Shown here: piece after piece, positions 4,416 through 32,823 of the stretch
Numbering within the stretch: the first letter of the stretch is position 1
Layout: every line of letters begins with the position of its first letter
Assembly (NCBI GenBank): GCA_002410925.1
Contig: DHPR01000017.1
Location: 1 to 33,347, forward strand
Source: a bacterium UBP13_UBA5359
GTDB taxonomy: Bacteria; UBP13; UBA5359
DNA: 33,347 nt
Reading direction: 5' to 3'
Made by a program: the position numbers and the translations under genes
The notes under the pieces: generated by a model
Database searches by the model: none
What the model was told of the DNA's origin: nothing
The model's input: the letters and a program-made list of their open reading frames with translations, nothing else

Positions 4416-5897
4416 TTATACAAGCTCCCACACCGGCGGCAGATAATCCTTGCCCAGCACTATTGGCCGAATCCCCGCGATCTCACAGGCGTAAAGCAAG
4501 CTCTCTATTTTATCCCCCGCCACTCCCTGAATATGATTGGCAGGGAAGTACTGCAAAAACTCCCGGAAACCGCCCTCCAGCCGCGCATAGACATGCGGCC
4601 AGGTTGGATCCGTCTCCTTTCCTAATTCTTGACGCTGTTTTGCCGGCAGCTCCAAACTCTCTGCAGCCAAGATCACCATGTACGGTTTATCGTTGTAGAA
4701 GCCGAGCCTGGCCAAAGTCAGCTTGCCAGGTGCAGCATCAAACTCAACAGAGGCTCCGCCTGCTTTGAAGTAATATTCCAAAGCCGGATGGAAGGTAATG
4801 TGCTTGAAATTCTCCTGCGGATCAACTGATAAAGCAGCATAGTAACTGGAATGATTTCCACTGTTACATAAATCCCACAGCTCCAGCTCAGGGTGATACA
4901 ATCTAACATCCATAAAAAGTGTTGGCAAGCCCCCTGAGATATATTTCAAAAGCTGCATGGTAACGGCGGCATTGCTATCCGCCTCCGTAGCGCAGACTGT
5001 AGGCTCTTTCGGACCCTTCCAATCATAAGGATCATTGAGCAGCATCTCGGCCACATCGCCTAAGCACACATATTCAGTGAGCTCGCGCTGGCCTTTGATA
5101 CCGCAGAAATCCAGGCCATATTCCTCATTGAGCTTTTTTACGGCCAGATAGAGGCGAATCTGCCTTTCCAGCGTCTTCTCTGTCAGCATGTGCTCATCAT
5201 AGCACAAACGTTCACCTAATAAATTTTCAAACCACCTGCGTCCCTTTTTCACCTCATCTTCTGGAATTCCTTCCATCACTTTTAAAACCATAAGCTGATC
5301 GATCTGGTAAGCTGTGCAGCCGAGTGCTCTTTGAGCAGGTATTAGATGAAAGTAACCTGTCTCCATGCCCATGGAATGACCGCCATAAAGGCCATAGACT
5401 TCATTGCGAATCGTGGTGATGGCCTGGCTTGCCCGCACCCAATTCAACACCTGCTCCACAGTGCCGGAATCCTCTATCTCTCCCACAACACGATGGGTTC
5501 TGCGCCCTGCCTGTCTCAGGGCTCCATCTGTGGCAAGCAGACCCACATTCCCCGGATATTTCCCATTATTGTTGGAAAGGCTCAAAATAGGAATCTCCCT
5601 GCCCAATGAGTTCACCAGAGGCCATACCAGATAGGGAAAATCCCAAACGTTGTAGCACATGATAAGCTGCTTTACATTTGCCCTTGCCAGCTCCTCGCCC
5701 ACCTGCTGCGCCACCCGCACACCGGTTATAGTCTGGGAAGCCACCACTATAGACGGACAATGACCTTCCGCAGTTAGGCGTTCCCGGATTACCTTTGCCC
5801 AAGCCTCTACAGTCGCCATGTTCTCCTGGCTATTTGCCTCATAAACATGGGGCCGTTCATCATTGACCAACACCAGGCCTATTGCTGTACTTCTCAC
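4416..5897 (-). CDS. L-fucose/L-arabinose isomerase family protein (FucI-related)
   Basis: PGNVGLLA, GGHSMGM, GIKGQRELTE, CATEADSN, FMDVR, LCNSG, DPTWPH and ANHI resemble FucI-family motifs. Likely start is GTG at 5897 behind SD AAGGAGG; the ORF track starts at 5939. Confidence 0.82.
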   Translation of the reverse strand: MRSTAIGLVLVNDERPHVYEANSQENMATVEAWAKVIRERLTAEGHCPSIVVASQTITGVRVAQQVGEELARANVKQLIMCYNVWDFPYLVWPLVNSLGREIPILSLSNNNGKYPGNVGLLATDGALRQAGRRTHRVVGEIEDSGTVEQVLNWVRASQAITTIRNEVYGLYGGHSMGMETGYFHLIPAQRALGCTAYQIDQLMVLKVMEGIPEDEVKKGRRWFENLLGERLCYDEHMLTEKTLERQIRLYLAVKKLNEEYGLDFCGIKGQRELTEYVCLGDVAEMLLNDPYDWKGPKEPTVCATEADSNAAVTMQLLKYISGGLPTLFMDVRLYHPELELWDLCNSGNHSSYYAALSVDPQENFKHITFHPALEYYFKAGGASVEFDAAPGKLTLARLGFYNDKPYMVILAAESLELPAKQRQELGKETDPTWPHVYARLEGGFREFLQYFPANHIQGVAGDKIESLLYACEIAGIRPIVLGKDYLPPVWELV

Positions 5898-5917
5898 GAA
5901 AAATCCCTCCTTAAAGT

Positions 5918-5932
5918 CTGTAACCGGTTTCA
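5918..5932. promoter_or_regulatory. LacI-family operator (cre-like) upstream of the isomerase
   Basis: CTGTAACCGGTTTCA, near-palindromic with central CG, identical to 7101-7115. Confidence 0.75.
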
Positions 5933-5947
5933 GAAACATTTAAAAAA

Positions 5948-6946
5948 TTAAACTCTTCTTGCAGACTTACGCTCCAGCAATGTCATCTGCATTACCACCT
6001 CCCGAGGCTTTTGGACATTGCCATCCAGCCTTTCCAAAGCTAATTGTGCAGCCACAGCACCCATGGTTCTCACAGGCTGCGCTACAACTGTAAGGAACGG
6101 ATATACTTGCGAGGCCAGTTCTAAATCATCAAAACAGACTAAAGAGATATCTTCAGGTATAGATAGTCCCATTTGGCGAATGGCGGCAAGTGCTCCGAGG
6201 GCCTCCAGATTATTTGATGTAATTACACATGTCGGAGGACAGGCAAGTGCCAATAGCTTCAGCATACCTTCCCGCCCGCCTTCCTGTTTGAAGTCGCCTG
6301 AAACTATAAGCTTTTCATCAGGCCCCAGACCGTGCTTCTCTAAAGCCTGAAGATAGCCCTCAAGACGCAGCCTGGCAGTGGAGATTCCATCCTTACCTTT
6401 GATAAAGCCAATCTCCCTGTGCCCCAAAGCTACCAGATAATCGACCAGCATCTGAGCGCCCCTGTGATCATCGCTGCGCACGAGATCGGCCTTCAAGCCT
6501 TTGGGCTGCCGGTCTAAAAGGACAAGGGGAATTTCAGCGCTTAAATGTGAGGTTATATGCTTTGCAAAGCTTGCTGTGCTGGCAATAATCAGAGCATCCG
6601 CTCTCTTTTCCATTAGAAAACGCAAAGCTCCGCGCTCTTTATCCATATCTTCATCTGTGTTGAAGAGTATTACAGCAATTTTCTGCGCTGACGCCTGCTC
6701 CTCGATCCCCCGGATGATCTCTGTAAAAAAGGGATTGGTGATATCAGGCACAACCACAGCGATGGTGTTGGTTCGTTTTTTAGTAAGGCTGCTGGCATTG
6801 GCATTGGGAACAAAGCCGGTCTTCCGGAGCACCTTTTGTACTTTCTCACGAGTTTCAGGAGAGACATATCGTTCGTCGTTGATTACCCTTGAGACTGTAG
6901 CTGCCGACACACCGGCCATTTTTGCAATGTCATAAATGCTCGTCAT
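5948..6946 (-). CDS. LacI-family transcriptional regulator
   Basis: SIYDIAKMAGVSAATVSRVIN HTH, followed by a periplasmic-binding-protein-like domain (IPEDISLVCFDD). Confidence 0.96.
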   Translation of the reverse strand: MTSIYDIAKMAGVSAATVSRVINDERYVSPETREKVQKVLRKTGFVPNANASSLTKKRTNTIAVVVPDITNPFFTEIIRGIEEQASAQKIAVILFNTDEDMDKERGALRFLMEKRADALIIASTASFAKHITSHLSAEIPLVLLDRQPKGLKADLVRSDDHRGAQMLVDYLVALGHREIGFIKGKDGISTARLRLEGYLQALEKHGLGPDEKLIVSGDFKQEGGREGMLKLLALACPPTCVITSNNLEALGALAAIRQMGLSIPEDISLVCFDDLELASQVYPFLTVVAQPVRTMGAVAAQLALERLDGNVQKPREVVMQMTLLERKSARRV

Positions 6947-6964
6947 TCTGAAACCCCTTTCAGA
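6947..6964. promoter_or_regulatory. Operator-like inverted repeat covering the RBS of the LacI gene
   Basis: TCTGAAA-CCCC-TTTCAGA, similar to the TGAAACCGGTTACA sites, directly upstream of the ATG at 6946. Confidence 0.45.
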
Positions 6965-7100
6965 TTATATGATATAATTTCTCTCTTTTTTATTAGATTC
7001 CTGCATAATATTAAAAGAAGAAAACTCGAAACAGCCTACTTTACAGCGTAAAGCTAATTTAAGCAGGAAAAGAAGAAGAAAACACGAATAATTACATAAG

Positions 7101-7115
7101 CTGTAACCGGTTTCA
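7101..7115. promoter_or_regulatory. LacI-family operator (cre-like) upstream of the fucosidase
   Basis: CTGTAACCGGTTTCA, identical to 5918-5932, about 15 nt upstream of the SD GGAGGAG. Confidence 0.75.
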
Positions 7116-7136
7116 ATTATCATTTGATTGGAGGAG

Positions 7137-9071
7137 ATGACGTTGCAAATGCGCACGGTTCATCTTGATTTTCACAACAGCTCCTTGCTTGAAAATATCG
7201 GGGCGCAATTCGATCCTGAAAGCTTTGCTCAAAGGCTTCTAGAGGCAAGGGTAGAATCTGTAACCTGCTTTGCCAAGTGCCACCATGGCATGATCTATTA
7301 CTATACCAGGTTGCCTGCCCGGCATCCGCACCTTGAATGCGATCTCTTGCGAGAGCAAATTGCCGCATGCCACAAGGTAGGTATCAAAGTCCCTATTTAT
7401 ATCTCTCTGGGCTTTGATGAAGAGATGGCAAAGCTCCATTTGGATTGGCGAGAGGTATCTGCAGAGGGAAAGCTTGGCGGCAGCACACCGCTGGAAGCCG
7501 GCTGGAAGAAGCTTTGCCTGAATAATGATGCTTATCTTTCCTATGTTGAAGAGCAGATTGCAGAGCTCCTTTCCCTCTTTGATGTTGATGGCTTCTTCTT
7601 CGATATTGTCCATCAGGAAGAGTGCTGCTGTGCTAATTGCCTTGCCTCTATGGAGGAGGAAGGCTACGACCCTGAGATAAGCCAGGAGCGAAAGGCCTTT
7701 GCAGAAAAAGTACTGCTGCGAGTGAAGAAGCGGCTATCCTCTTTCATCTGGGAGCGGAAAGCTGCCTCTTCTGTTTTCTACAATGCAGGCCACATTGCCC
7801 CCGGCATTCGCTCCAGCTTAAAATTCTATTCCCACCTTGAGATCGAATCTCTTCCTACAGGCGGTTGGGGGTATGACCATTTTCCCATAGTCGCGCGCTA
7901 CGCCCGAACTTTGGATCTTCCCTACCTTGGAATGACAGGGCGCTTTCATAAGTCCTGGGCTGAGTATGGCGGCTACAAGGATCCCAGCGCTCTGGAATAT
8001 GAATGCTTAAGAACCATAGCCTTCGGTGCAAGCTGCTCCGTAGGAGACCAGCTGCTGCCGGATGGTCGCCTGGATCCCATAGCTATAAAGCTCATCGGCG
8101 ATACATATGAAACCGTTGCGAAATATGAGCCTTATTTTCAAGGCGCCAAGCCCACTTCCGAGATAGGAGTTGTAATGCCAAAGCCGACAGAAAAGATAAT
8201 CGACGATGCTCTGGCAGGTGCAAACAGAATCCTTGGTCAGGCTCAGTATCAGTTTGATCTGGTGGATAGCCGCTGTGACTGGTCAAAATACTCAGTGCTG
8301 CTTCTTCCTGACCGGATAGAGCTTTCCCGCGAGCCGGCAGCAAAGGTGGCAGAGTATCAACAGAAAGGCGGCAAGGTCCTGGCCAGCTACCACAGCGGCC
8401 TTTGCCAGGGCGAATTTCCACCCGGCTGGCCTCTTGAATATCTGGGTGAGAGCGAGTTTCATCCCGATTATCTTATGCCTGGAAAGGAATGGCAGAGCCT
8501 GGGGCAGATGCCCTTTGTGATGCACGAGCCTGCAGCAGAGATTGCAAGCGAATCCCGGTGGCCGGCAGAGCGATGGCAGCCATTATTCCAAAGAAGCCGG
8601 CGCCACTTTTCAAATCACTTCCATACTCCTCCTCAAGGCCCCATGGGGCGGCCGGGAGCTGTATGCTGGGGAGCCGGCATCTACTTTGCTCACCCCCTCT
8701 TTACCATCTACCGTAAGCATGGCAGCCCTATAGCTCGCAAGCTTGTGCTTGCAGCCTTGAAGGAACTGCTTCCTGAGCCGCTTGTAGTAAGCAACGCCCC
8801 ATCCACTGCACAGCTACTGCTGAACTATCAAGAAAGAGAAAAGCGCTACTGCCTCCATATTCTCCATTATGTGCCGGAAAGGCGCTCTCAGCTGGACCTG
8901 ATTGAGGATCCTTTGCCCCTGGTGGATTTAGAAATCGGTCTTAGAATATCTAAGCCAAAGAGGGTCTATTCTCTTTCAGGCAAGGTGCCGGCTATGGAAT
9001 ACAAAGCCGGGAGAGCCTGGATTAAAATCGATAAAATGGTAGGCCGCCAGTTGATCGTTTTAGAGCAGTAA
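7137..9071 (+). CDS. GH151-like alpha-L-fucosidase (GHL6 N-terminus plus beta-galactosidase trimerization-like domain)
   Basis: VHLDFH, FAKCHHG, DGFFFDIV, HLEIESLPTGGWGYDHFP, LGMTGRFHKSWAEYGG and CSVGDQL motifs. No signal peptide. Divergent from the fucose-isomerase-family gene. Exact start (7137/7143/7149) uncertain. Confidence 0.75.
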   Translation: MTLQMRTVHLDFHNSSLLENIGAQFDPESFAQRLLEARVESVTCFAKCHHGMIYYYTRLPARHPHLECDLLREQIAACHKVGIKVPIYISLGFDEEMAKLHLDWREVSAEGKLGGSTPLEAGWKKLCLNNDAYLSYVEEQIAELLSLFDVDGFFFDIVHQEECCCANCLASMEEEGYDPEISQERKAFAEKVLLRVKKRLSSFIWERKAASSVFYNAGHIAPGIRSSLKFYSHLEIESLPTGGWGYDHFPIVARYARTLDLPYLGMTGRFHKSWAEYGGYKDPSALEYECLRTIAFGASCSVGDQLLPDGRLDPIAIKLIGDTYETVAKYEPYFQGAKPTSEIGVVMPKPTEKIIDDALAGANRILGQAQYQFDLVDSRCDWSKYSVLLLPDRIELSREPAAKVAEYQQKGGKVLASYHSGLCQGEFPPGWPLEYLGESEFHPDYLMPGKEWQSLGQMPFVMHEPAAEIASESRWPAERWQPLFQRSRRHFSNHFHTPPQGPMGRPGAVCWGAGIYFAHPLFTIYRKHGSPIARKLVLAALKELLPEPLVVSNAPSTAQLLLNYQEREKRYCLHILHYVPERRSQLDLIEDPLPLVDLEIGLRISKPKRVYSLSGKVPAMEYKAGRAWIKIDKMVGRQLIVLEQ

Positions 9072-22767: not shown

Positions 22768-24849
22768 CTAAGCTCCAATCTCCAAGGATTGTCCGTATTG
22801 CTCAAGCTTCCTTACGGCTATGAAGTATTCAATCTGTGAGATGTACTCCTTGAGCTTCTCATCCGGCTCCCCAAAGACACGATCTATGATATCCTCTATA
22901 TCATCTGCAATAACCGTTTCAGAGTAGTGATTTCTTATATCTACCTTGAGCAGCTCGATCTTCTTTCTTACACTCCTGATTCTATCAACCATGGCTGTCA
23001 ATGCTGCCAAAGAGAGGCCGGCCACATCCCTGCTTTCAAAACTGCATGAGAGAATGCCTTTATTACCGGTCGTTTTGTCCTTTCTCCACCGGCTCTTATC
23101 CATGCATCCGATTATACTCTCATCTATCTCACTGCCCAGCCTGATGGCTTCAATAAAGAGCAATCTCATTTTGCCGGCCAAAGAGAGTAGATTATAGTTA
23201 CCCTTATTCCTGCTGATCAGCGGCTCAACCCGGTTTAACAGTGCTAAGGCATTCTCTGTTCTATGCTTCATTTCCGCTGTATTCCAAGGCTGGATATTTC
23301 CTCCCAACAGGTACATGGCTTGGGTCAGCGCTTCCATGTCAACGCCGTAGAAGCGCCGTCTGAATTTACATTCAAAATCTGCCCGGGTCTCTTCAGGCGT
23401 CCAAGCAAATTCTGCTGTGGCTGCCACACCGTGCCAAGTAGTTTCCAACGGTCCTCCTGCTTCCGGCCATGAAGTTGCTATAGTGCCCAAAGCCCGATTG
23501 GCCGCAGCACTGACGGCAAAGCCTCGTATGTTCGGTATGGTAATTCTATCATCAACGTTAATCAATCCGGAAGGGCCAGGCCTTTTTGCTGAACCGCAGA
23601 TGACCTGCAAGCCGTGGTCTTGATAAAAGCGCAAATAAGGAAAGGGGCGGTTGACATACGGGAATCCATCCTTTCCCCAATAATCTTTAAAGGTATCGAT
23701 GATATGGGGTGGAATGTTTTCCAGCGCTTCCCGCCCGAACCACGCCCTGTTCTCCCACTTGACGAAGGGCACGCTCTCCGTATCACCGCTGATATAATCC
23801 CAATACATGACCGTTATGTCTTTGTCGAGGCTGTCAATGGCTTCAGGAAACCAAGCCAACTGATCATCCCAGATTATCGGCTTTTTACCTCTATCCTTGA
23901 TATAGCCGGCGGCTTTATTGGCGGCCTCAATGAAGAACCTTGACTTCCCATAGCGTTCTACCCCCTCATAGCAGGTAGGACAAATGCCCAGATGATAAGT
24001 TTCATCGCCGCCGATATGGAAGTACTTCGAATCTTTATGAGTAGCCATTACCTCAGAAGCCAGATCCGTAAAGAGTTCGAAAGACTGCTCATGACTAGGA
24101 CAGAACTGGTAAGGATCGAGGGGGTTCTCCCTCAAATGAGAGTATCCTTCGTGCTTAAGTATATATTTCACGTGAGCAAACCACTGCACCAGAGGTATTA
24201 TTTCAAGATGGCGCTTTTGTGCCTCGTTGACCAGTTCCCCTATCTCTTCCTCGGTCAGCGCATCCTTATGTCTTATGGCCGGATGAGATTTATAAGGATA
24301 CTTATCTTCATATTCAAGAAGGATGGTGTTTATCTTATATCTGCTTATCTGCTTTATAAAGGATTTTAAGTAAACAAAGGTCGGTGTCTGGCAGGCGAGC
24401 ATAAGATGGACTCCCCTCATCTGCAACACCGGCCAGTCGCGTATCTCCAGGCATGGCAGATCGGGACTATTCTCCATCAGTTGCAGCAACGTTTGCGTAC
24501 CCATAAAGATGCCCTGCCGGCTGGTGCTGGCAACTACAGCCGCTTTTTCGCTGACAAGCAGCATATAGCCCTCCGTACCAAGATCTTCCAAGGAAGCTTT
24601 CTCCGGCAGTTTCAAGGCCTTTACATCGCCGAGAGCCAGTATTTCGTACGGCAGCCCGATAACTTCGATATCCGGCTGGAAGTTATATTCCGGAATGCTG
24701 TTCGCATCTTTCAAAAATACTTTCGCTTCTTTTATTACGTTGGCGGTTGAAACAATAGCCGAACTGGAACTGGCCCTAAAAACTCCCTCCCGACACAGTA
24801 ATTCCTTGGGTTGAGGAATCAGGGCGAAGGTATTTTCAATATCGTACAT
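22768..24849 (-). CDS. GH20 family beta-N-acetylhexosaminidase, probably cytoplasmic
   Basis: LIPQPK...EGYML GH20 domain 2, IRDWPVLQMRGVHL, EYED, catalytic HIGGDE (24001-24018), IIWDD, MYWDY. No signal peptide. Confidence 0.88.
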   Translation of the reverse strand: MYDIENTFALIPQPKELLCREGVFRASSSSAIVSTANVIKEAKVFLKDANSIPEYNFQPDIEVIGLPYEILALGDVKALKLPEKASLEDLGTEGYMLLVSEKAAVVASTSRQGIFMGTQTLLQLMENSPDLPCLEIRDWPVLQMRGVHLMLACQTPTFVYLKSFIKQISRYKINTILLEYEDKYPYKSHPAIRHKDALTEEEIGELVNEAQKRHLEIIPLVQWFAHVKYILKHEGYSHLRENPLDPYQFCPSHEQSFELFTDLASEVMATHKDSKYFHIGGDETYHLGICPTCYEGVERYGKSRFFIEAANKAAGYIKDRGKKPIIWDDQLAWFPEAIDSLDKDITVMYWDYISGDTESVPFVKWENRAWFGREALENIPPHIIDTFKDYWGKDGFPYVNRPFPYLRFYQDHGLQVICGSAKRPGPSGLINVDDRITIPNIRGFAVSAAANRALGTIATSWPEAGGPLETTWHGVAATAEFAWTPEETRADFECKFRRRFYGVDMEALTQAMYLLGGNIQPWNTAEMKHRTENALALLNRVEPLISRNKGNYNLLSLAGKMRLLFIEAIRLGSEIDESIIGCMDKSRWRKDKTTGNKGILSCSFESRDVAGLSLAALTAMVDRIRSVRKKIELLKVDIRNHYSETVIADDIEDIIDRVFGEPDEKLKEYISQIEYFIAVRKLEQYGQSLEIGA

Positions 24850-25808
24850 TATTTATTCTCTCCCATTGCCGCTTCTTGAGCCGAAGGTGCAAATATATAG
24901 AATATCAGATCCATCTTGGGCTGAGCACTTCCTGAAATAAAGGCCATGCCGTCCGGGTAAGGATCAGGAGAGCAGGGAAAGAAGGAGCTTTCAGGGTGCC
25001 AGCAGTTCCAGACGTAGTAATAGTTCTTCTCATTGTCGCCGCTTTTATCTGGAATGTTTAGCTCGAAGTAGTAAAACTTGTCTGCCGATACCGGTAGATC
25101 TGCGTTGAAGGACATGATATTCCTTTTGTAATAAGGGTTGCTGTAAGTTTGGGGATTCTCCAGCACCTTTAACGGATCAGTCGCCAAAGTGGATTTCAAA
25201 TCGCCCTTCCAGGCATACAGCTTCATCACTGGCGTACCTACCGCCTGGGATGTGCCCTCGTTTTTGGCCGACATGATATTTATTCTGGAGATATGAGAAA
25301 TCTTACCGACCTTAAAGCTTTGCCCGATTGTCCTGGAGCCCCATAGCCTGGCTGCCCCCGACCAGAGTGGTTGGGATTGCTCTATAAACTCGGCCGCACG
25401 ATAATATTTTATTTCCCTGACTGTGCTTAGCACCTTACCACCTATCTTCACTGCAATATTAACGCTGTGCTCGGTCTGGGTATTCCCAGGGGAAAAGACG
25501 GCAAATATTTCTCCGTTTGTATTCGTTTTACCGCTTAAAGTCATGGTTATCGTCTTGCCGCCTTCAATGGATATAACTTCAATATCAGCGCCTTTTATAC
25601 CGGCGGCGGGCTTCCCGGCGGCATCTTTGAGCGTGATTTTCCCATTTAATCGTTCTCCAAGCACCGGCCTCTTGTCCTCTCCTGAGCGAGAAATAAAGAT
25701 GAAAGTGGATTTATCAGGATCTATCTCTTCGCTTTCAGCCGGATTTGAAATCATCCCCAGACAGCAGGCAAAACTACACAGCAGCAACCCGATAATGCTC
25801 CTAAACAT
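24849..25808 (-). CDS. Secreted hypothetical protein: Ig-like (Big_1/invasin-like) domain plus a beta-sandwich-like domain
   Basis: Hydrophobic N-terminal signal, ITLKDAAGKP...TNTNG Ig-like segment, C-terminal GQSF...YYFEL...PYPDGMAF...DLIF. Stop overlaps the GH20 start. Domain names are tentative. Confidence 0.6.
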   Translation of the reverse strand: MFRSIIGLLLCSFACCLGMISNPAESEEIDPDKSTFIFISRSGEDKRPVLGERLNGKITLKDAAGKPAAGIKGADIEVISIEGGKTITMTLSGKTNTNGEIFAVFSPGNTQTEHSVNIAVKIGGKVLSTVREIKYYRAAEFIEQSQPLWSGAARLWGSRTIGQSFKVGKISHISRINIMSAKNEGTSQAVGTPVMKLYAWKGDLKSTLATDPLKVLENPQTYSNPYYKRNIMSFNADLPVSADKFYYFELNIPDKSGDNEKNYYYVWNCWHPESSFFPCSPDPYPDGMAFISGSAQPKMDLIFYIFAPSAQEAAMGENK

Positions 25809-25830
25809 ATGGATCACCTTTCCTTTCCTT

Positions 25831-28653
25831 TCAGTTATTCATTGTATTCGGTTGTTTCCCAACCAACCAATATATCGAAGACATCAGCAGATCCCTGTCA
25901 ATGCCGGCTGCTTCCTGCGGCTCACCAGTCTTGAGATATGGGACTGCTCCGTTCAAGACCACCCGTCCCCTGCCCAGTTCCCCAGCTATGAGCACGGCAT
26001 CACCACGATCGTTTACGCAGACGGTGGTACCCCCCTGGCCGCGTTGCATGGCGATATGATCATAATACATAATCTCATAAGACCTGCCTATCTCCAACCC
26101 CTGCGCCAGCGGATGCCTGGCCGATACCTTTATGCTGTTGTTTTCTATGCGGTTGGCTCCCGTGCAAAACTCTGGGAAGATGCTTCTTTTCATGGGGAAG
26201 CGGTTGTAACCCACACTGTCGTGATACAAGATTACGCCCCTTCCGTCCCTGATAACCAGGTCTCTCACGGCGGCTTCAGCATCCCATACCTCTTTCTCTA
26301 CCAGCAAGAAGGTACCGTTATCCTGGTTGGCAAACCGCTTGCAGCTGGGGATTATCAGGCAATCATAGAACGAAGCCTCCTTCAAGGATGCTATGAATAC
26401 CGGCTCCATATCCCTAGACTTGAGAAGGGTGGTATAGATGGCATTCTGCCCAACAACCAGGCCACCGGAATCGTTAGGATTGTATATGGCTACCTTGATT
26501 CTTCCGGTTCCGCCATTCTGCCGGGTTTGCATAAGAGACAGGCGCAAGTCAAGCGATTTATATGCCTTATCCAGCGCTGCCAGCCATGTGGCATACCTCC
26601 ACGTCGGCAATTCCTTTTCTGCCACGGCCATAGCATCCTCAGCTGATTTCATGCTTGCCCTGGCCTGCGCCACCTTTCCCTCCTTAGCTAGTTTCTCTGC
26701 AACCAGAAGATGATAGTTCACTTTCCCACCTAAAGCAGCCGTTTTCATATTAGAGATAAAGGTTTCCAGTTGCATGAAACCGCCGTCCTTTTTGAAGCCC
26801 TTGCCCTGTTCTTTGAAAGCAACCAGCATCTCCCAGGCATTCTTCGCCTTCTGATACTGTTCTTTTATAACATCTGGATTGTGGAATATCTCTGTATACG
26901 GAGGAGCATTATATCTGCCCATCCTCAGCAGCGGCCTGCGAGCAATACCCATTCTCAGAATCTGAGCCATCATCGGTGCCGCATCAGTCCCGTAGAGTTC
27001 TTCACAGATACGAGAGAGAAAGCTTTGGCAGATGGCCTCAGGTGCCGTGGTCGATTTGTTCCACAGCCAATCATGGAATTCCATGCCGTCAATATCCATC
27101 ATGGGCAGACGATACAAGTCCTCGACATACCTTTCAGCCTGAGCCCCTTTCTTGGCATAAAGGGGCTCTGCTCCGGGGGCATCAACGTTCCACATATATT
27201 CCGCCGCCTGCAGCACGTTGGGATCCTCGGAGTTCTCATAAGAGAGGTGCTGGTTCACAAAAACTAAATCCTTGCTACCAGGATAATAGCCGGATTTGAT
27301 GGCGAATCTGATTTCACTGGAAAAATCGCGGCCAAGCACCAGGGGACAATGCACAACGTTACGCCAGTGGCAGACGGGCTGCCTGACAACCTCTTTCCAG
27401 GAAGCCTGGCAGTCCCGGCTCCAGTCGGCATTCACCAACCAGACATCCTCCGGTATCAGCTTTGTCAGTTTGGCAAAGAACTGCCTGTAGGCAGCATTCT
27501 CCGGCAGGTTCAACTGCCCGTAGTACGGTTCGACCACAAAGACCAGGCTGGTCTTTGGCGAGCGAAGTTTGACGGCTTTGTAAATAATATTCAGCTGGTT
27601 GGCTGTGGCGGCAGCCCTGTCGTCGCCGAAACGGTTACGGGTAATCCGATCTCTGTCACTCCAGTATTCTGTGGGCGATCCATCCCGGAAATGAAATATG
27701 AACCATGGAAAACCGACCTCGGCAATAAAATTCGCTGCCTTCTCAGCTTTAGCTGTTATGAGATCATCCCTGCCCCAGCTCCAATAGGCACCGCCGGCTA
27801 TATTGCAATCCTTAAACGCCGGATTATCCTTATCTTGAGAAACATAGCCGACGCTGGTATAGAGCATGAGCCCCATGATCTGTATCCCCCTGGCGACAGC
27901 GCCATCATTAAAAGCACGCAGCCATGCAATGTCCTTTTCAGCAGGTACGGTCTTGTTGCCGTTGGTAAAACCCCAGAGATTGACGGACACCATATCTATC
28001 TTATGGCGCAGGCACCAGTCCAGATATAGCAGCGCGTCTTTGATGGGCCTCCGGCTGTCGGGAGGGGTTACTGTAATAGCCCGGTTATATAAATCCGGCC
28101 AATCTTCTACGGCAGCCCTCAAAGCATACGGCTTACCGTTATCCGCTCTGATCAGTTGACTGAAGCTAATGCAAGCATAAAGTGCTCCCTGAGCATCCTT
28201 ACCGGCAAGAAGATAGACCGTCCTGCCACCCCTGTCTACCGAGGTTATGATATACCCAGATAACGGCATTTTATCTAGCTCCCGCCCTGAGGCCGGAGTC
28301 TGCTGTAAGTATCTGCCCAGAAGCCCGTTCTCTTCAGCGGTGCCGATGAGAATCAGGTTCGCTTTTTTTAACTCTGGCTCATCCACTTTGTCTTCGTCGA
28401 TGATTCTTATGCTCCCGCCTGTCAGAGCAGACACTCGGCTGATAATCTCAGCGGCGCCATACCTTGATAGATCAGAGGCTATTTTATCCAGAACTATTAC
28501 AGCCTCTCCAGAAGCCAGAGACACCTTACCCGTCTCCTGTTTCAGACTTTTTGGAGTAGGCAGAATATTAATTGTATCGCTGCCTTCGCATAAACCCGAC
28601 ATAATATAAGCTACACATAGACAGAAAAGCAATATCACAGACGCTCTATTCAC
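25831..28653 (-). CDS. Secreted multidomain glycoside hydrolase: GH20 domain 2, GH84-like barrel, C-terminal GATase/ThuA-like domain
   Basis: Signal peptide, ILPTPK, LAGKDAQGALYA, EDWPD, FIFHFRDG...ANQLN...LVFVVEPYY, AAEYMWN. C-terminal KVAIY...YDCLII...GRGVILYHD...GRGRVVL. Likely GTG at 28653 behind GGAGGT. Confidence 0.65.
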   Translation of the reverse strand: MNRASVILLFCLCVAYIMSGLCEGSDTINILPTPKSLKQETGKVSLASGEAVIVLDKIASDLSRYGAAEIISRVSALTGGSIRIIDEDKVDEPELKKANLILIGTAEENGLLGRYLQQTPASGRELDKMPLSGYIITSVDRGGRTVYLLAGKDAQGALYACISFSQLIRADNGKPYALRAAVEDWPDLYNRAITVTPPDSRRPIKDALLYLDWCLRHKIDMVSVNLWGFTNGNKTVPAEKDIAWLRAFNDGAVARGIQIMGLMLYTSVGYVSQDKDNPAFKDCNIAGGAYWSWGRDDLITAKAEKAANFIAEVGFPWFIFHFRDGSPTEYWSDRDRITRNRFGDDRAAATANQLNIIYKAVKLRSPKTSLVFVVEPYYGQLNLPENAAYRQFFAKLTKLIPEDVWLVNADWSRDCQASWKEVVRQPVCHWRNVVHCPLVLGRDFSSEIRFAIKSGYYPGSKDLVFVNQHLSYENSEDPNVLQAAEYMWNVDAPGAEPLYAKKGAQAERYVEDLYRLPMMDIDGMEFHDWLWNKSTTAPEAICQSFLSRICEELYGTDAAPMMAQILRMGIARRPLLRMGRYNAPPYTEIFHNPDVIKEQYQKAKNAWEMLVAFKEQGKGFKKDGGFMQLETFISNMKTAALGGKVNYHLLVAEKLAKEGKVAQARASMKSAEDAMAVAEKELPTWRYATWLAALDKAYKSLDLRLSLMQTRQNGGTGRIKVAIYNPNDSGGLVVGQNAIYTTLLKSRDMEPVFIASLKEASFYDCLIIPSCKRFANQDNGTFLLVEKEVWDAEAAVRDLVIRDGRGVILYHDSVGYNRFPMKRSIFPEFCTGANRIENNSIKVSARHPLAQGLEIGRSYEIMYYDHIAMQRGQGGTTVCVNDRGDAVLIAGELGRGRVVLNGAVPYLKTGEPQEAAGIDRDLLMSSIYWLVGKQPNTMNN

Positions 28654-28718
28654 TTTGCATACCTCCAATCATTCAACCCGCATACGGGTAATGCATCACT
28701 CTGTTGCCGATGGTCTTC

Positions 28719-29453
28719 CTACGGGCCGTAATAGGATGTCCCCGTAGATATTTTTCCTGATGAATGATCGCCGTCAGCATCTCGGCAAAAATAGTCTAAT
28801 CTACCTGAGTAAAGAGGATCTGTCAAAAAACGCCCGCTTGCCCCCTCCCCGCTGTTCCACCATTTAACATGGCCATCGGCATATAGAATATTTATCCCGC
28901 TTTTATGCCAAATATTTATGGGCGCACCAACGAAATCATCAGTAGCTATCACCCAATTCCAGGCCGTTTTTTCTACCAACGAATAAAGCTTGCAATATCC
29001 ATACTCATTATTATCCCGATAACTGTATGAAGATGCGAGCGGATCAGTATGCGGCCCTCCTATGGTAAATCCCGCGCCGTATGATAAAGGAGCAGAAGGA
29101 CAATAAAGTATACGCCCGTCTTTAATATATCCGCAGGAGTAAAGCAGCCCCAATCCTACCCAGCCGCCATGCTTGGTGTCAGACTTAACATATGAGGTAT
29201 GGCAATCAACAATTCTGCCATCTCCTCTCCCTATTCTAGGTAAGTAGCCGTCGTAATCATCGGCATACATATGAAGAGCCATCCCGATCTGCTTTAAATT
29301 GCTCTGACAGGTTGCCTGCCGGGCCTTCTCCCTGGCCTTGCCGAAGACAGGGAAGAGTATACTTGCCAAAATTGCGATAATTGCTATAACTATTAGAAGT
29401 TCAATAAGCGTGAAGCCTGCACTATTTTCGGATGATACTTTAAATAGCCTCAT
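28719..29453 (-). CDS. Prepilin-type N-terminal cleavage/methylation protein, DUF1559 family, with H-X9-DG motif
   Basis: [50 protein letters not shown], and exact [12 protein letters not shown] (28872-28907). Confidence 0.93.
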
Positions 29454-30201
29454 TGCCAACACTCCCTTGCTTTATAGTTGTCCTGGTATTGAAAAGTAAC
29501 CCGGTTTTATGTATTTGCTGCTCCCATTTCAAAACAGACCCATCTTCCAGAGAGAGTATCTCCGTTACCAGCAATACCGGCGCACCGGCATATGTTCTTA
29601 AAAGGGTGGCCGTTTTGTCGTCAATCAGAATCGGAAGAATTTGCAGCTCTCTATGAGCAACCTTTAAATCGCTTCTCTTTTTCAAATACTCTGTCAGGGA
29701 TCTTTCGGCCAATTTTCGGCCTATCATTTCTGGTATGAACTTATAGGGTATGTAACGCAATTCGCTGCACAGAGGCATCCCGTTGGCCAGTTTCAATCTG
29801 TTGATACGAAATAATTTCTCCCCTTCATCAACCTTTAAACGCTCAGCCATCTCCACATCGGCAATCACCAATTCTTCTTCAAGAAGCCTTATGCGCCCGA
29901 CAAAACCTCTCTTCTCTCCTTGCGAAAAGAAGCTCTCCACATATTCAAGGTCTTCTCTCTGCATCACTTCATTAACAAAAGTTCCTTTGCTGGGGACAGA
30001 TACAAGCAACCCCTCGTTAACCAGGGAGCCTATAGATTTGCGAATAGTTACCCGGCTGACATTACATAATCTGCTCAGCTCTCTCTCCGACGGAATCTTA
30101 TCGGCGGGCTTTAAACTTCCAGTCTTGATCTGCTTTAATAAGAAATCCCTTACCTGTATATGTGCCGGAACGGCGGTAGCTTTGCCAATATTCCCTATCA
30201 T
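29440..30201 (-). CDS. GntR family regulator, HutC/UTRA subfamily (NagR/DasR-like)
   Basis: [20 protein letters not shown]...KGTFV wHTH followed by a UTRA-like domain. Confidence 0.93.
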
Positions 30202-30223
30202 GTAAAAGCCCCTCTTCTGAGAA

Positions 30224-30249
30224 ACTGGTTAATACCGGTAAATACCACT
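30224..30249. promoter_or_regulatory. Two overlapping dre-like GntR/HutC operators
   Basis: ACTGGTTAATACCGGT (30224-30239) and ACCGGTAAATACCACT (30234-30249). Both resemble the DasR palindrome ACTGGTCTAGACCAGT and cover the predicted transcription start. Confidence 0.7.
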
Positions 30250-30252
30250 TAC

Positions 30253-30281
30253 ATAGTATCGCTCTTTCGGAGTCTTGTCAA
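30253..30281 (-). promoter_or_regulatory. SigA-type promoter of the GntR-prepilin-GH operon
   Basis: Minus strand TTGACA, 17 nt, TACTAT. Confidence 0.8.
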
Positions 30282-31685: not shown

Positions 31686-32555
31686 TTATCGCTCGTCTTC
31701 CCATTTTTTCTTGCTTAAATAGGCCCTGCCGCCGCAGGTAAGATTAGCGTAATTTTGCAGCCCTTTATCATGTCCGGCGTGGTGGGCGCAGCGGACCATG
31801 GGGATATCATTACCATACCCGTAAACCTGCCCGGGGTCCTGGACGGAATTGGTCGGGAAATAAACAGTGCCGTCATTCCTTCTAATCTGCGTCTCGCCAT
31901 GCCGGGTAGTGTGACATTTGGGGCAATAGCGACCGTAAACCTGAATCATCTTAACATCATGCCAGCTCCAATATTCGGCGGGGTAAGGTATCATAGGCTG
32001 CGCTGCCGTTTGTAAATAAACGCTATGCTTTCTACCTCCGGTCCGGCAGATTCCAGAATACGGCAAGGTTTCCCAATTGCTCGGCACAGGATTATTGCCA
32101 TCATAATAATGCGCCCCGTGAGCATCGGTTTCCATTCCTCTGGGGTCATCCGAACATGGGGCAATACCAAATTCATACATATAGCTGCAGGGAATACCAT
32201 TTCCGGAATAAGCGTAATCATCCAGTTCCGCATAATCTGCCTCAGTGTTACCCGGCCAACGCCAAACCGTTCCCTTATCATTATCACTGGGACATATCAA
32301 TACTTCGGCATTACCCAGATAATCCGGAACCAGTTGGGATAACCACGGAACATCCTTCCTGTCATAATCGGTTTTATACATCTTGAGCGCTATCCCGAGC
32401 TGATGAAAATTCGTTAAGCATGATGCCCGCCTGGCATTCTCTCTGGCTCTTCCAAAGACCGGCACCAGAATGGCCATCAACACAGCCATAATAACTATGA
32501 CCAAAAGCAACTCCACCAGTGTAAAACCCTGACGCCTATTCTTTATCCATGCCAC
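31686..32555 (-). CDS. Prepilin-type N-terminal cleavage/methylation protein (DUF1559-like, atypical C-terminus)
   Basis: [59 protein letters not shown]. Likely GTG at 32555 behind GGAGG. Confidence 0.85.
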
Positions 32556-32823
32556 AACAATTCTTCCTCCTGACGCTACGCATATCTTAATACTCCCTGC
32601 CAACTGAAGCATTATACCACTTTCCTGCATTATACCTATAATTGGAGGAGAGAGATATATCTATTTTTCTATTTATACAACCATTAAGCCGGTGTCAATT
32701 ATATCTTTATTATCAGTATATCATTCAGTTGCAGATTCCTCAATTTGCAGTCAGTAATAATAGTTTGCCATATCTTGATGCCGGGTATACATAGAATAAA
32801 CCTTCGAAGGGAGTGTTTTCAGT

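Follow-up and report, generated by a model that had tools for sequence, protein, structure and literature searches.

A DUF1559/H-X9-DG pilin-class gene in a putative amino-sugar-type glycan operon of a UBP13 bacterium

The genes considered here lie on contig DHPR01000017.1 (C31) of the bacterium UBP13_UBA5359, a contig of 33.3 kb which was analysed over its whole length (33,347 nt) and is called the window below. Five of them, head to tail on the minus strand, encode a GntR-type repressor, a type IV pilin-class protein of the DUF1559/H-X9-DG type, an exported protein resembling glycoside hydrolase (GH) family 84, an exported 319-aa protein and a GH20 enzyme. The genome (2.25 Mb in 40 contigs, rated 98 % complete) belongs to a GTDB phylum of three genomes in total, all in one genus, and its nearest named homologues are labelled 'Armatimonadetes bacterium' at NCBI. 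Of the paralogous families to which no role has been assigned, that of the DUF1559/H-X9-DG proteins is one of the largest, and a search with a single DUF1559 query returned 265,265 cluster representatives at E <= 0.001. Our subject is the pilin-class gene and what its place behind a sugar-type repressor may mean.

Results

Layout of the operon and its control region

The features of the operon, in the order in which they are read, are as follows.

30253..30281, minus strand: candidate sigma-70-type promoter, TTGACA-17-TACTAT (10/12 consensus matches), within the 361-nt gap that precedes the GntR gene
30227..30246, minus strand: candidate operator, two adjacent imperfect palindromes, GGTATTTACC + GGTATTAACC, 6 nt past the -10 box
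29440..30201, minus strand: GntR/UTRA (HutC-type) repressor, 253 aa, NagR/DasR-like (PF00392 + PF07702)
28719..29453, minus strand: DUF1559/H-X9-DG type IV pilin-class protein, 244 aa, or 247 aa from an upstream GTG (PF07963, PF07596, TIGR04294)
25831..28653, minus strand: exported 940-aa protein, predicted three-domain GH84 fold and C-terminal alpha/beta domain (model, profile, signal-peptide-like N-terminus)
24849..25808, minus strand: exported 319-aa protein of no named family, with an Ig-like N-terminal part and a lectin-like sandwich as leads (signal-peptide-like N-terminus)
22768..24849, minus strand: cytoplasmic GH20 beta-N-acetylhexosaminidase-like enzyme, 693 aa (PF02838 + PF00728, no signal peptide)

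The original prediction, made from the letters of the DNA, had described five tightly spaced co-oriented genes in this order with two overlapping junctions, and both overlaps are present: the pilin gene, with a GGGAG box 9 nt ahead of its ATG, shares 14 nt with the end of the GntR gene, and the GH20 gene overlaps the 319-aa gene by 1 nt. The GH84-like gene, whose GTG start follows a GGAGG box, begins 65 nt beyond the pilin stop; this start gives a protein of 940 aa, the same length as the database homologue P0005, and the 319-aa gene follows after a gap of 22 nt. Downstream of the operon, polA begins after 84 nt and has its own promoter-like site. No terminator-like sites were found in the intergenic gaps of the operon (4 weak sites overall versus 7.1 in shuffled sequences).

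The promoter and operator pair that had been proposed ahead of the operon likewise lie there, at 30281..30253 and 30246..30227. The promoter candidate shares the top score among 23 promoter-like sites that were found in 8.4 kb; shuffled sequences have 12.6 +/- 3.6, so that the consensus match alone is not beyond chance. What gives the candidate weight is that it lies in the gap ahead of the GntR gene. Operators of HutC-type GntR regulators typically have a GGT..ACC core. The operator 20-mer (GGTATTTACC/GGTATTAACC) has one match in the genome at up to 3 mismatches, namely itself, and the single half-site GGTATWWACC has 12 genome-wide matches, about the number estimated for chance. Further operator copies were sought as pointers to a hidden transporter; three extra sites at 4 mismatches, one within a gene, one before an unannotated gene and one before a Ser/Thr kinase gene, were rejected.

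The pilin-class protein

The second gene had been described as prepilin-like, and PF07963, PF07596, TIGR04294 and the fold of the model all place its product in the type IV pilin class. The protein carries the motif GFTLIELL and exceeds the cut-offs of PF07963 (34.2 bits, cut-off 21.2), TIGR02532 (30.3, cut-off 16.3) and PF07596 (50.6 versus 23.3), the last over only profile positions 2-39 of 268, while the TIGR04294 match (23.5 bits versus 19) spans residues 185-202 in the numbering of the 247-aa form. All 34 paralogues compared share F+1, T, L and E+5, and at least 90 % have Gly-1; of the H-X9-DG motif, H183 is invariant and D193 and G194 nearly so. The model has a long N-terminal helix (residues 16-66) and strands at 168-171, 186-191 and 196-200, and its 15 best VIA matches of 48,161 chains are all pilins or pseudopilins, with middling Z scores of 7.1-4.3, led by EpsG (Z 7.1, root-mean-square deviation 3.0, 95 residues aligned), PilA4 (6.5), PilV (6.2) and PulG (5.7). 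A Foldseek search of the PDB with the model had no match at E <= 0.001, so that VIA alone ranked pilins. A periplasmic binding-protein fold appeared neither among the 50 listed VIA matches nor with Foldseek, an absence from the list that excludes nothing; the globular part comprises about 175 residues.

The N-terminal 44 residues are 79 % identical across the 34 paralogues, and identical residues share a codon in 40 % of cases versus 34 % expected, which indicates old purifying selection and not gene conversion. The globular parts are barely alignable, at 20-55 bits for most pairs. Cys49, in the helix, and Cys118, in a CPS motif, are also invariant in the 34 paralogues, and a disulfide between them could hold the globular part to the helix.

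Within the DUF1559/H-X9-DG family the protein is at home by its methylation motif, PF07596 and H-X9-DG, all over their cut-offs, and by a globular part that resembles DUF1559 Atlas clusters (0.96-0.97). The forms found here differ in being short (210-250 aa) and in matching positions 2 to about 60, at times 200-267, of the 268 in the profile, whereas Planctomycete members of 330-400 aa match positions 1-267; they differ too in their setting, most of them heading the structural genes of an operon that is sugar-regulated. Copy numbers are high: 36-42 in this genome (42 by PF07596 at E <= 0.01), 92 in a Planctomycetaceae genome and at least 141 in a Victivallales genome, giving 92 to >140 across sampled Planctomycetaceae, Armatimonadia and Victivallales, with 26 in a Limisphaerales genome.

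Genome-wide coupling of pilin genes to regulators and exported glycan proteins

Our own gene calls (2047-2048 genes) and a motif screen gave 36 DUF1559-type pilin genes in the genome, two of them fragments; the set excludes the atypical second pilin-like gene of the window, described below. A regulator of the GntR-PBP, LacI, AraC or DeoR class stands immediately upstream on the same strand of 23/36 pilin genes, compared with 55/2048 of all genes (Fisher odds ratio 109, p 7e-30). When GH, carbohydrate-binding module (CBM) or LamG Pfam domains (E <= 1e-8) were counted in the next three same-strand genes, 23/36 pilin genes had such a domain downstream against 2/36 random genes (p 2e-7). The coupling extends to export, as called by a crude signal-peptide rule: the first downstream gene is signal-peptide-like in 22/29 cases after a pilin and in 308/1599 genome-wide, and an exported protein occurs in 19/20 regulator-pilin operons but in 8/26 regulator operons without a pilin (p 1e-5). 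The gene downstream of a pilin is also long, with a median of 723 aa versus 298 genome-wide.

Nearly every cassette among loci L001-L030 also has a small (220-440 aa) exported beta-sandwich protein, LamG, CBM9, CBM4_9 or unnamed, like the 319-aa protein of the window, and many of the giant enzymes in these cassettes open with a Laminin_G_3 domain at residues ~80-230.

The regulator and the enzymes

The repressor had been read as a GntR/UTRA protein, and its domains (PF00392, 57.9 bits, 7.8e-16; PF07702, 95.7 bits, 2.9e-27) and best solved relatives, Bacillus subtilis YvoA/NagR (7.5e-32, a full-length match) and DasR (4e-20), bear this out; no NCBIfam equivalog cut-off was reached. Over the 154 residues available it is 89.6 % identical to the copy in a sister species (G001). 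With the NagR (YvoA) and DasR amino-sugar regulons the operon shares a regulator related over its full length and control of N-acetylhexosamine (HexNAc)-type hydrolases; it differs in that its operator 20-mer occurs once in the genome, which makes the regulator look like a local operon repressor and not the head of a global regulon.

The description of the third product as a secreted GH84-like protein stands for the export-like N-terminus and for the fold, and is less certain for the catalytic pair. In Pfam the 940-aa protein has weak GH20b-like and GH67N N-domain matches, all below cut-offs, and its profile matches the NagJ/GH84 N-domain at 5.6e-16 over residues 23-216 only. In the model (predicted local distance difference test, pLDDT, 78.4) GH84 O-GlcNAcases are matched over residues 34-715 (Foldseek E 6.5e-20), and comparison with BtGH84 residues 4-581, a three-domain structure of N-domain, TIM barrel and helical bundle, gave VIA Z 28.4 with 494 residues aligned at a root-mean-square deviation of 6.5. 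The GH84 chains at VIA ranks 1-44 score Z 23.7-28.4, two more GH84 chains 20.3, and GH20 chains about 20-21. The model thus predicts a GH84-fold protein. In the catalytic region, as judged from sequence conservation, D301 is invariant, as are H326, D329 and G330, and position 302 is Asp in 6/10 sequences. A GH84 Asp-Asp pair does not stand out, so that 'GH84-like' describes the fold with some assurance and the chemistry at most tentatively. The family is rare (11 matches). Its distant relatives (24-32 % identity) are mostly found without a pilin gene; three of them, at L174, L175 and L178 (30-32 % identity), lie within exopolysaccharide or O-antigen biosynthesis clusters (GT2, GT4, Wzy, epimerase), and the GH84-fold family may include polymer-processing hydrolases.

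The 319-aa protein has 7 homologues in all and no Pfam, NCBIfam or PDB sequence match; its Ig-like and lectin-like Atlas matches score <0.9 and are leads only. The last gene had been called a signal-less GH20 with an intact HIGGDE, and so it proved: PF02838 (59.7 bits, 6.3e-16) and PF00728 (58.3 bits, 1.1e-15) are both over their cut-offs, the catalytic motif HIGGDE (H-x-G-G-D-E acid/base) is present and a signal peptide is not. Its best solved relative is 8qk1 (7.7e-28), with lacto-N-biosidases next.

Transport genes and pilus machines

A Pfam scan of 26 open reading frames (ORFs) of the window agreed with the earlier statement that genes for ATP-binding cassette (ABC), phosphotransferase system (PTS), major facilitator superfamily (MFS) and SusC/D transport and for pilus or type II secretion system (T2SS) machines are missing near the operon; a SusC/SusD-type pair was found neither by Pfam in the window ORFs nor in 33 pilin neighbourhoods. 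The further suggestion that the pilin stands where an uptake module would normally be was not borne out. Only three BPD_transp_1 permease pairs are present in the genome, an Opp-type pair, Pst and a single CUT1-type sugar pair (C40:174500-176100), the last with no binding protein or ATPase beside it and remote from all cassettes, while 12-13 SBP_bac_1 genes are scattered, six of them in neighbourhoods around pilin genes. With one sugar permease pair and scattered binding-protein genes, the transporter-less cassette is the norm in this genome, and the pilin, which accompanies binding proteins, therefore does not stand in for uptake genes. The arrangement suggests one translocator shared by many SBP_bac_1 binding proteins.

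Pilus machinery encoded elsewhere had also been expected, and it is abundant. The genome holds two prepilin peptidases (Peptidase_A24), three PilB/GspE-type, one TadA-type and four PilT-type ATPases and four secretins, so that both a prepilin peptidase and an assembly ATPase are available. They include a type IVa pilus (T4aP) cluster on contig C1 (PilB, PilT, PilC, PilD, PilM, PilQ), a complete T2SS (GspD, E, F, G, H, I, J, K, L-like, M) and a Tad cluster; an orphan secretin and an orphan PilB were found as well. The gene directly after pilD (L033:8775-9458 = G000:C1:23774-24457) encodes a 227-aa pilin with the N-terminal signature of the family, the CP motif and H-X9-DG. It aligns with the profile of the paralogues over 100 columns (E 1.4e-28), compared with 58 N-terminal columns only for GspG (E 2.7e-13; hhalign Prob 98 %), which favours the T4aP machine. 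The pilins of this genome thus resemble type IVa pilins in their class III signal, their helix-plus-sheet fold and the presumed need for PilD, PilB and PilC, the T4aP-locus pilin being of the same family; they differ in that there are dozens of alternative pilin genes, each in a different catabolic operon away from the machine.

A complex prediction for the globular part of the pilin (38-244) with the 319-aa protein (25-319), run without controls, scored 0.00 against a mark of 0.32 and counts neither for nor against binding.

Conservation of the cluster

The order of the whole operon is kept in the sister species G001. The pilin orthologue there is 88.8 % identical (globular part 155/178) and the enzymes of the operon are 78-87 % identical, so that the globular part of the pilin is at least as conserved as the enzymes. 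Outside the source genome, two other genomes and 78 scattered loci across phyla were sampled. Among close relatives of the 940-aa protein (41-84 % identity), the three with upstream DNA (L170, L171 and L172) all show the order regulator, pilin(s), enzyme and a 309-315-aa gene, a fourth (L173) being cut at its upstream end, and none of these four GH84-like clusters has a transporter in the retrieved span. Of the observations that the original prediction had named as refuting it, those open to checking were not seen. The Victivallales genome shows a comparable placing, with 15/23 sampled pilin arrays directly behind a regulator and 4 more with one gene between, and with arrays of 2-3 different pilins heading single operons. 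At L177:6874-8835 a 653-aa DUF6785/DUF6784 protein is encoded behind a pilin-pilin-GH84-like run.

Other genes of the window

An atypical second pilin-like gene (31686-32630, minus strand; 314 aa) has PF07963 and PF07596 matches and no H-X9-DG. It lies upstream of the operon, between a 184-aa ORF of no known family and HydE, in an order also found at the metagenome locus L170. At 4416-9071 a LacI gene is followed by a fucose-isomerase-like gene, with a divergent 647-aa GHL6/GH42M gene; these genes have no signal peptides and no pilin and form an internal contrast to the pilin operon.

Discussion

We hypothesize that the pilin is a sugar-induced, operon-specific subunit of a shared, retractile type IV pilus that works outside the cell together with the exported enzymes. 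This is the reading that we favour, and we put it forward tentatively. It draws on the observed gene order, the part folds, the coupling of pilin genes to regulators and exported proteins, the presence of the machine and the conservation across species. Our working model, in which we infer co-transcription, cleavage, assembly, the machine used and the binding partner of the globular part, is as follows. The NagR/DasR-like repressor would sit on the tandem operator over the transcription start until released by a HexNAc-derived effector, whereupon the cell would produce the pilin along with two exported proteins, the GH84-fold enzyme and the lectin-like one, and the cytoplasmic GH20. Prepilin peptidase would cut the pilin at Gly|Phe, and the contig C1 T4aP machine (PilB, PilT, PilC, PilD, PilM and PilQ) would build it into a retractile fibre, into which the nearly invariant N-terminal helix would fit every paralogue. 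The divergent, Tyr/Trp-rich globular surface would give the fibre an operon-specific property, most likely glycan or exported proteins held at the surface. The products would enter by centrally encoded transporters and be finished in the cytoplasm by the GH20. Induction of a pilus together with glycan enzymes would parallel the chitin-regulated pilus of Vibrio, which is substrate-induced. Dextran has been reported to bind to pili-like fibres in Planctomycetes (PMC5394234), which is a suggestive precedent.

A number of observations weigh against this reading. The co-transcription of the five genes on which it builds is deduced from gene overlaps and absent terminators. The model of the pilin has a pLDDT of 68.7 with three segments below 50, and its single best fold match is the pseudopilin EpsG in a genome where a complete T2SS is also present. 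Glycan binding by the pilin is conjectural; an excess of aromatic residues (W+Y 10.2 % versus 4.5 % in the proteome) was considered as a sign of it and dropped, since an ordinary GspG is equally rich (10.3 %). The similarity of the globular parts of the pilins shows no more than a weak relation to that of the downstream enzymes (Mantel rho 0.13, p 0.058), whereas regulator similarity tracks the enzymes clearly (rho 0.37, p 0.002). Moreover, the cassette with a paralogous 944-aa GH84-like gene (C40:263.6-270.4k) is not headed by any of the nearest paralogues of the window pilin, a result that does not support co-duplication of pilin and GH84-like enzyme. Substrate specificity of the pilin is weakly supported.

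Other lineages add to these points. Gly seldom precedes the conserved Phe in the 27 DUF1559 pilins sampled from the Victivallales genome (G003, L151-L169), so that canonical prepilin cleavage may not hold there. In the Armatimonadia genome (G006, L131-L150) a regulator was found upstream of 3/47 sampled pilins, and tandem arrays of 2-6 copies dominate. From the 78 loci sampled across phyla, 41 pilin genes were recovered by our own ORF calls, which are crude in GC-rich genomes, and of the 36 same-strand neighbours scanned one locus (Victivallales L066) is cassette-like. The regulator-pilin design is not general for the DUF1559 family.

One alternative is that the pilin helps in export or display, joining the T2SS pseudopilus or a secretion pilus and helping the giant enzymes to cross the outer membrane or tethering them. 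The complete T2SS, the frequent company of exported proteins of 700-1400 aa, and the likeness to pseudopilins in fold (EpsG and PulG) and in the N-terminus, for which GspG is the best NCBIfam match (3.9e-11), are all consistent with this. The N-terminal 58 residues align with GspG, but the globular part does not and the pilin is encoded outside the T2SS locus; the pilin falls well short of the GspG equivalog TIGR01710 (43.1 bits, cut-off 88.85), has no PF08334 match at E <= 0.01, and is thereby unlike the canonical GspG that the T2SS has of its own (PF08334 at 3e-38). The longer alignment of the paralogues with the T4aP pilin and the weak co-variation with the enzymes also count against it, and to our knowledge there is no precedent for cargo-specific major pseudopilins. 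We consider an export or display role unlikely, though it is the most serious of the competing explanations. The idea that H-X9-DG is a relative of the GspG C-terminal loop was dropped, as hhalign did not align the globular parts.

Alternatively, the paralogues may be interchangeable building blocks, one copy being placed in each operon merely to scale fibre production to enzyme output, while the globular domains have drifted. A conserved N-terminus joined to a very divergent globular part, the weak and non-significant co-variation with the enzymes, and synonymous sites so saturated that the paralogues must be old would all be expected of such dosage. Against drift, the globular domain is held at 87 % identity between species, a constraint like that on the enzymes; to tune dosage with 36 copies in 2.25 Mb would be costly, and the Victivallales operons headed by 2-3 different pilins do not fit it. 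We regard a pure effect of dosage as improbable.

It is also conceivable that the protein is not a fibre subunit, and that its N-terminal helix keeps it in the inner membrane for periplasmic binding, escort or sensing of oligosaccharides or exported enzymes. Pfam names PF07596 'SBP_bac_10', DUF1559 proteins are called solute-binding proteins in two publications (PMC2754498, PMC4807772), and the Victivallales relatives mostly lack Gly-1. In the genome studied here, nearly all of the 34 paralogues retain Gly-1, Phe+1 and Glu+5, the best folds are those of pilins with no periplasmic binding-protein fold among the 50 listed, and six neighbourhoods combine pilin genes with true SBP_bac_1 genes; together these points make a membrane-held binding protein very improbable. 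That pilin genes adjoin regulators only through spread, duplication or insertion of the family near promoters, as its great size and scatter and its heterogeneous contexts in other phyla might suggest, can practically be set aside, given that position and order are kept between species and in enzyme clusters of 41-47 % identity, that pilins associate with exported enzymes specifically and not with regulators in general, and that the reading frames are translationally coupled by overlap.

The nearest parallel in overall design is with the SusC/SusD loci of Bacteroidota, in which one regulator likewise governs exported glycan-binding and glycan-cleaving proteins and an intracellular glycosidase, in a modular design that is repeated. 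The present operon differs in having no transporter in the locus, uptake genes being central, and a pilin-class gene in a conserved first position. Literature was searched with subscription journals not covered: the DUF1559 literature that was found does not describe the regulator-pilin-enzyme design and leaves the role unknown or 'solute-binding', nothing relevant was found on H-X9-DG, and no report matched pseudopilins, polysaccharide utilization and Planctomycetes in combination.

It is interesting to speculate further that one retractile type IV fibre takes DUF1559/H-X9-DG proteins as exchangeable outer subunits, each glycan regulon adding its own, a generalization that we hold with more doubt than the reading of the single operon and think possible rather than likely. 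The variable surface might bind glycan or the enzymes, or be of no consequence. The source genome offers the clearest genetic statement yet on a pilin gene of this family, which is wired through its position, and probably through its transcription, to sugar repressors and to glycan enzymes that are exported; sugar catabolism in the cytoplasm is not part of the link. The genome also presents a design of glycan-utilisation locus without a dedicated transporter, served by central uptake genes. Such wiring turns a vague family into a source of hypotheses on fibre composition, glycan binding and secretion. If the proposal for the family is true, a role would be assigned to all those cluster representatives, the binding surface of the fibre would report which polymers the cell eats, and the fibre would be a pilus-based counterpart of SusC/D in this lineage and in Victivallales.

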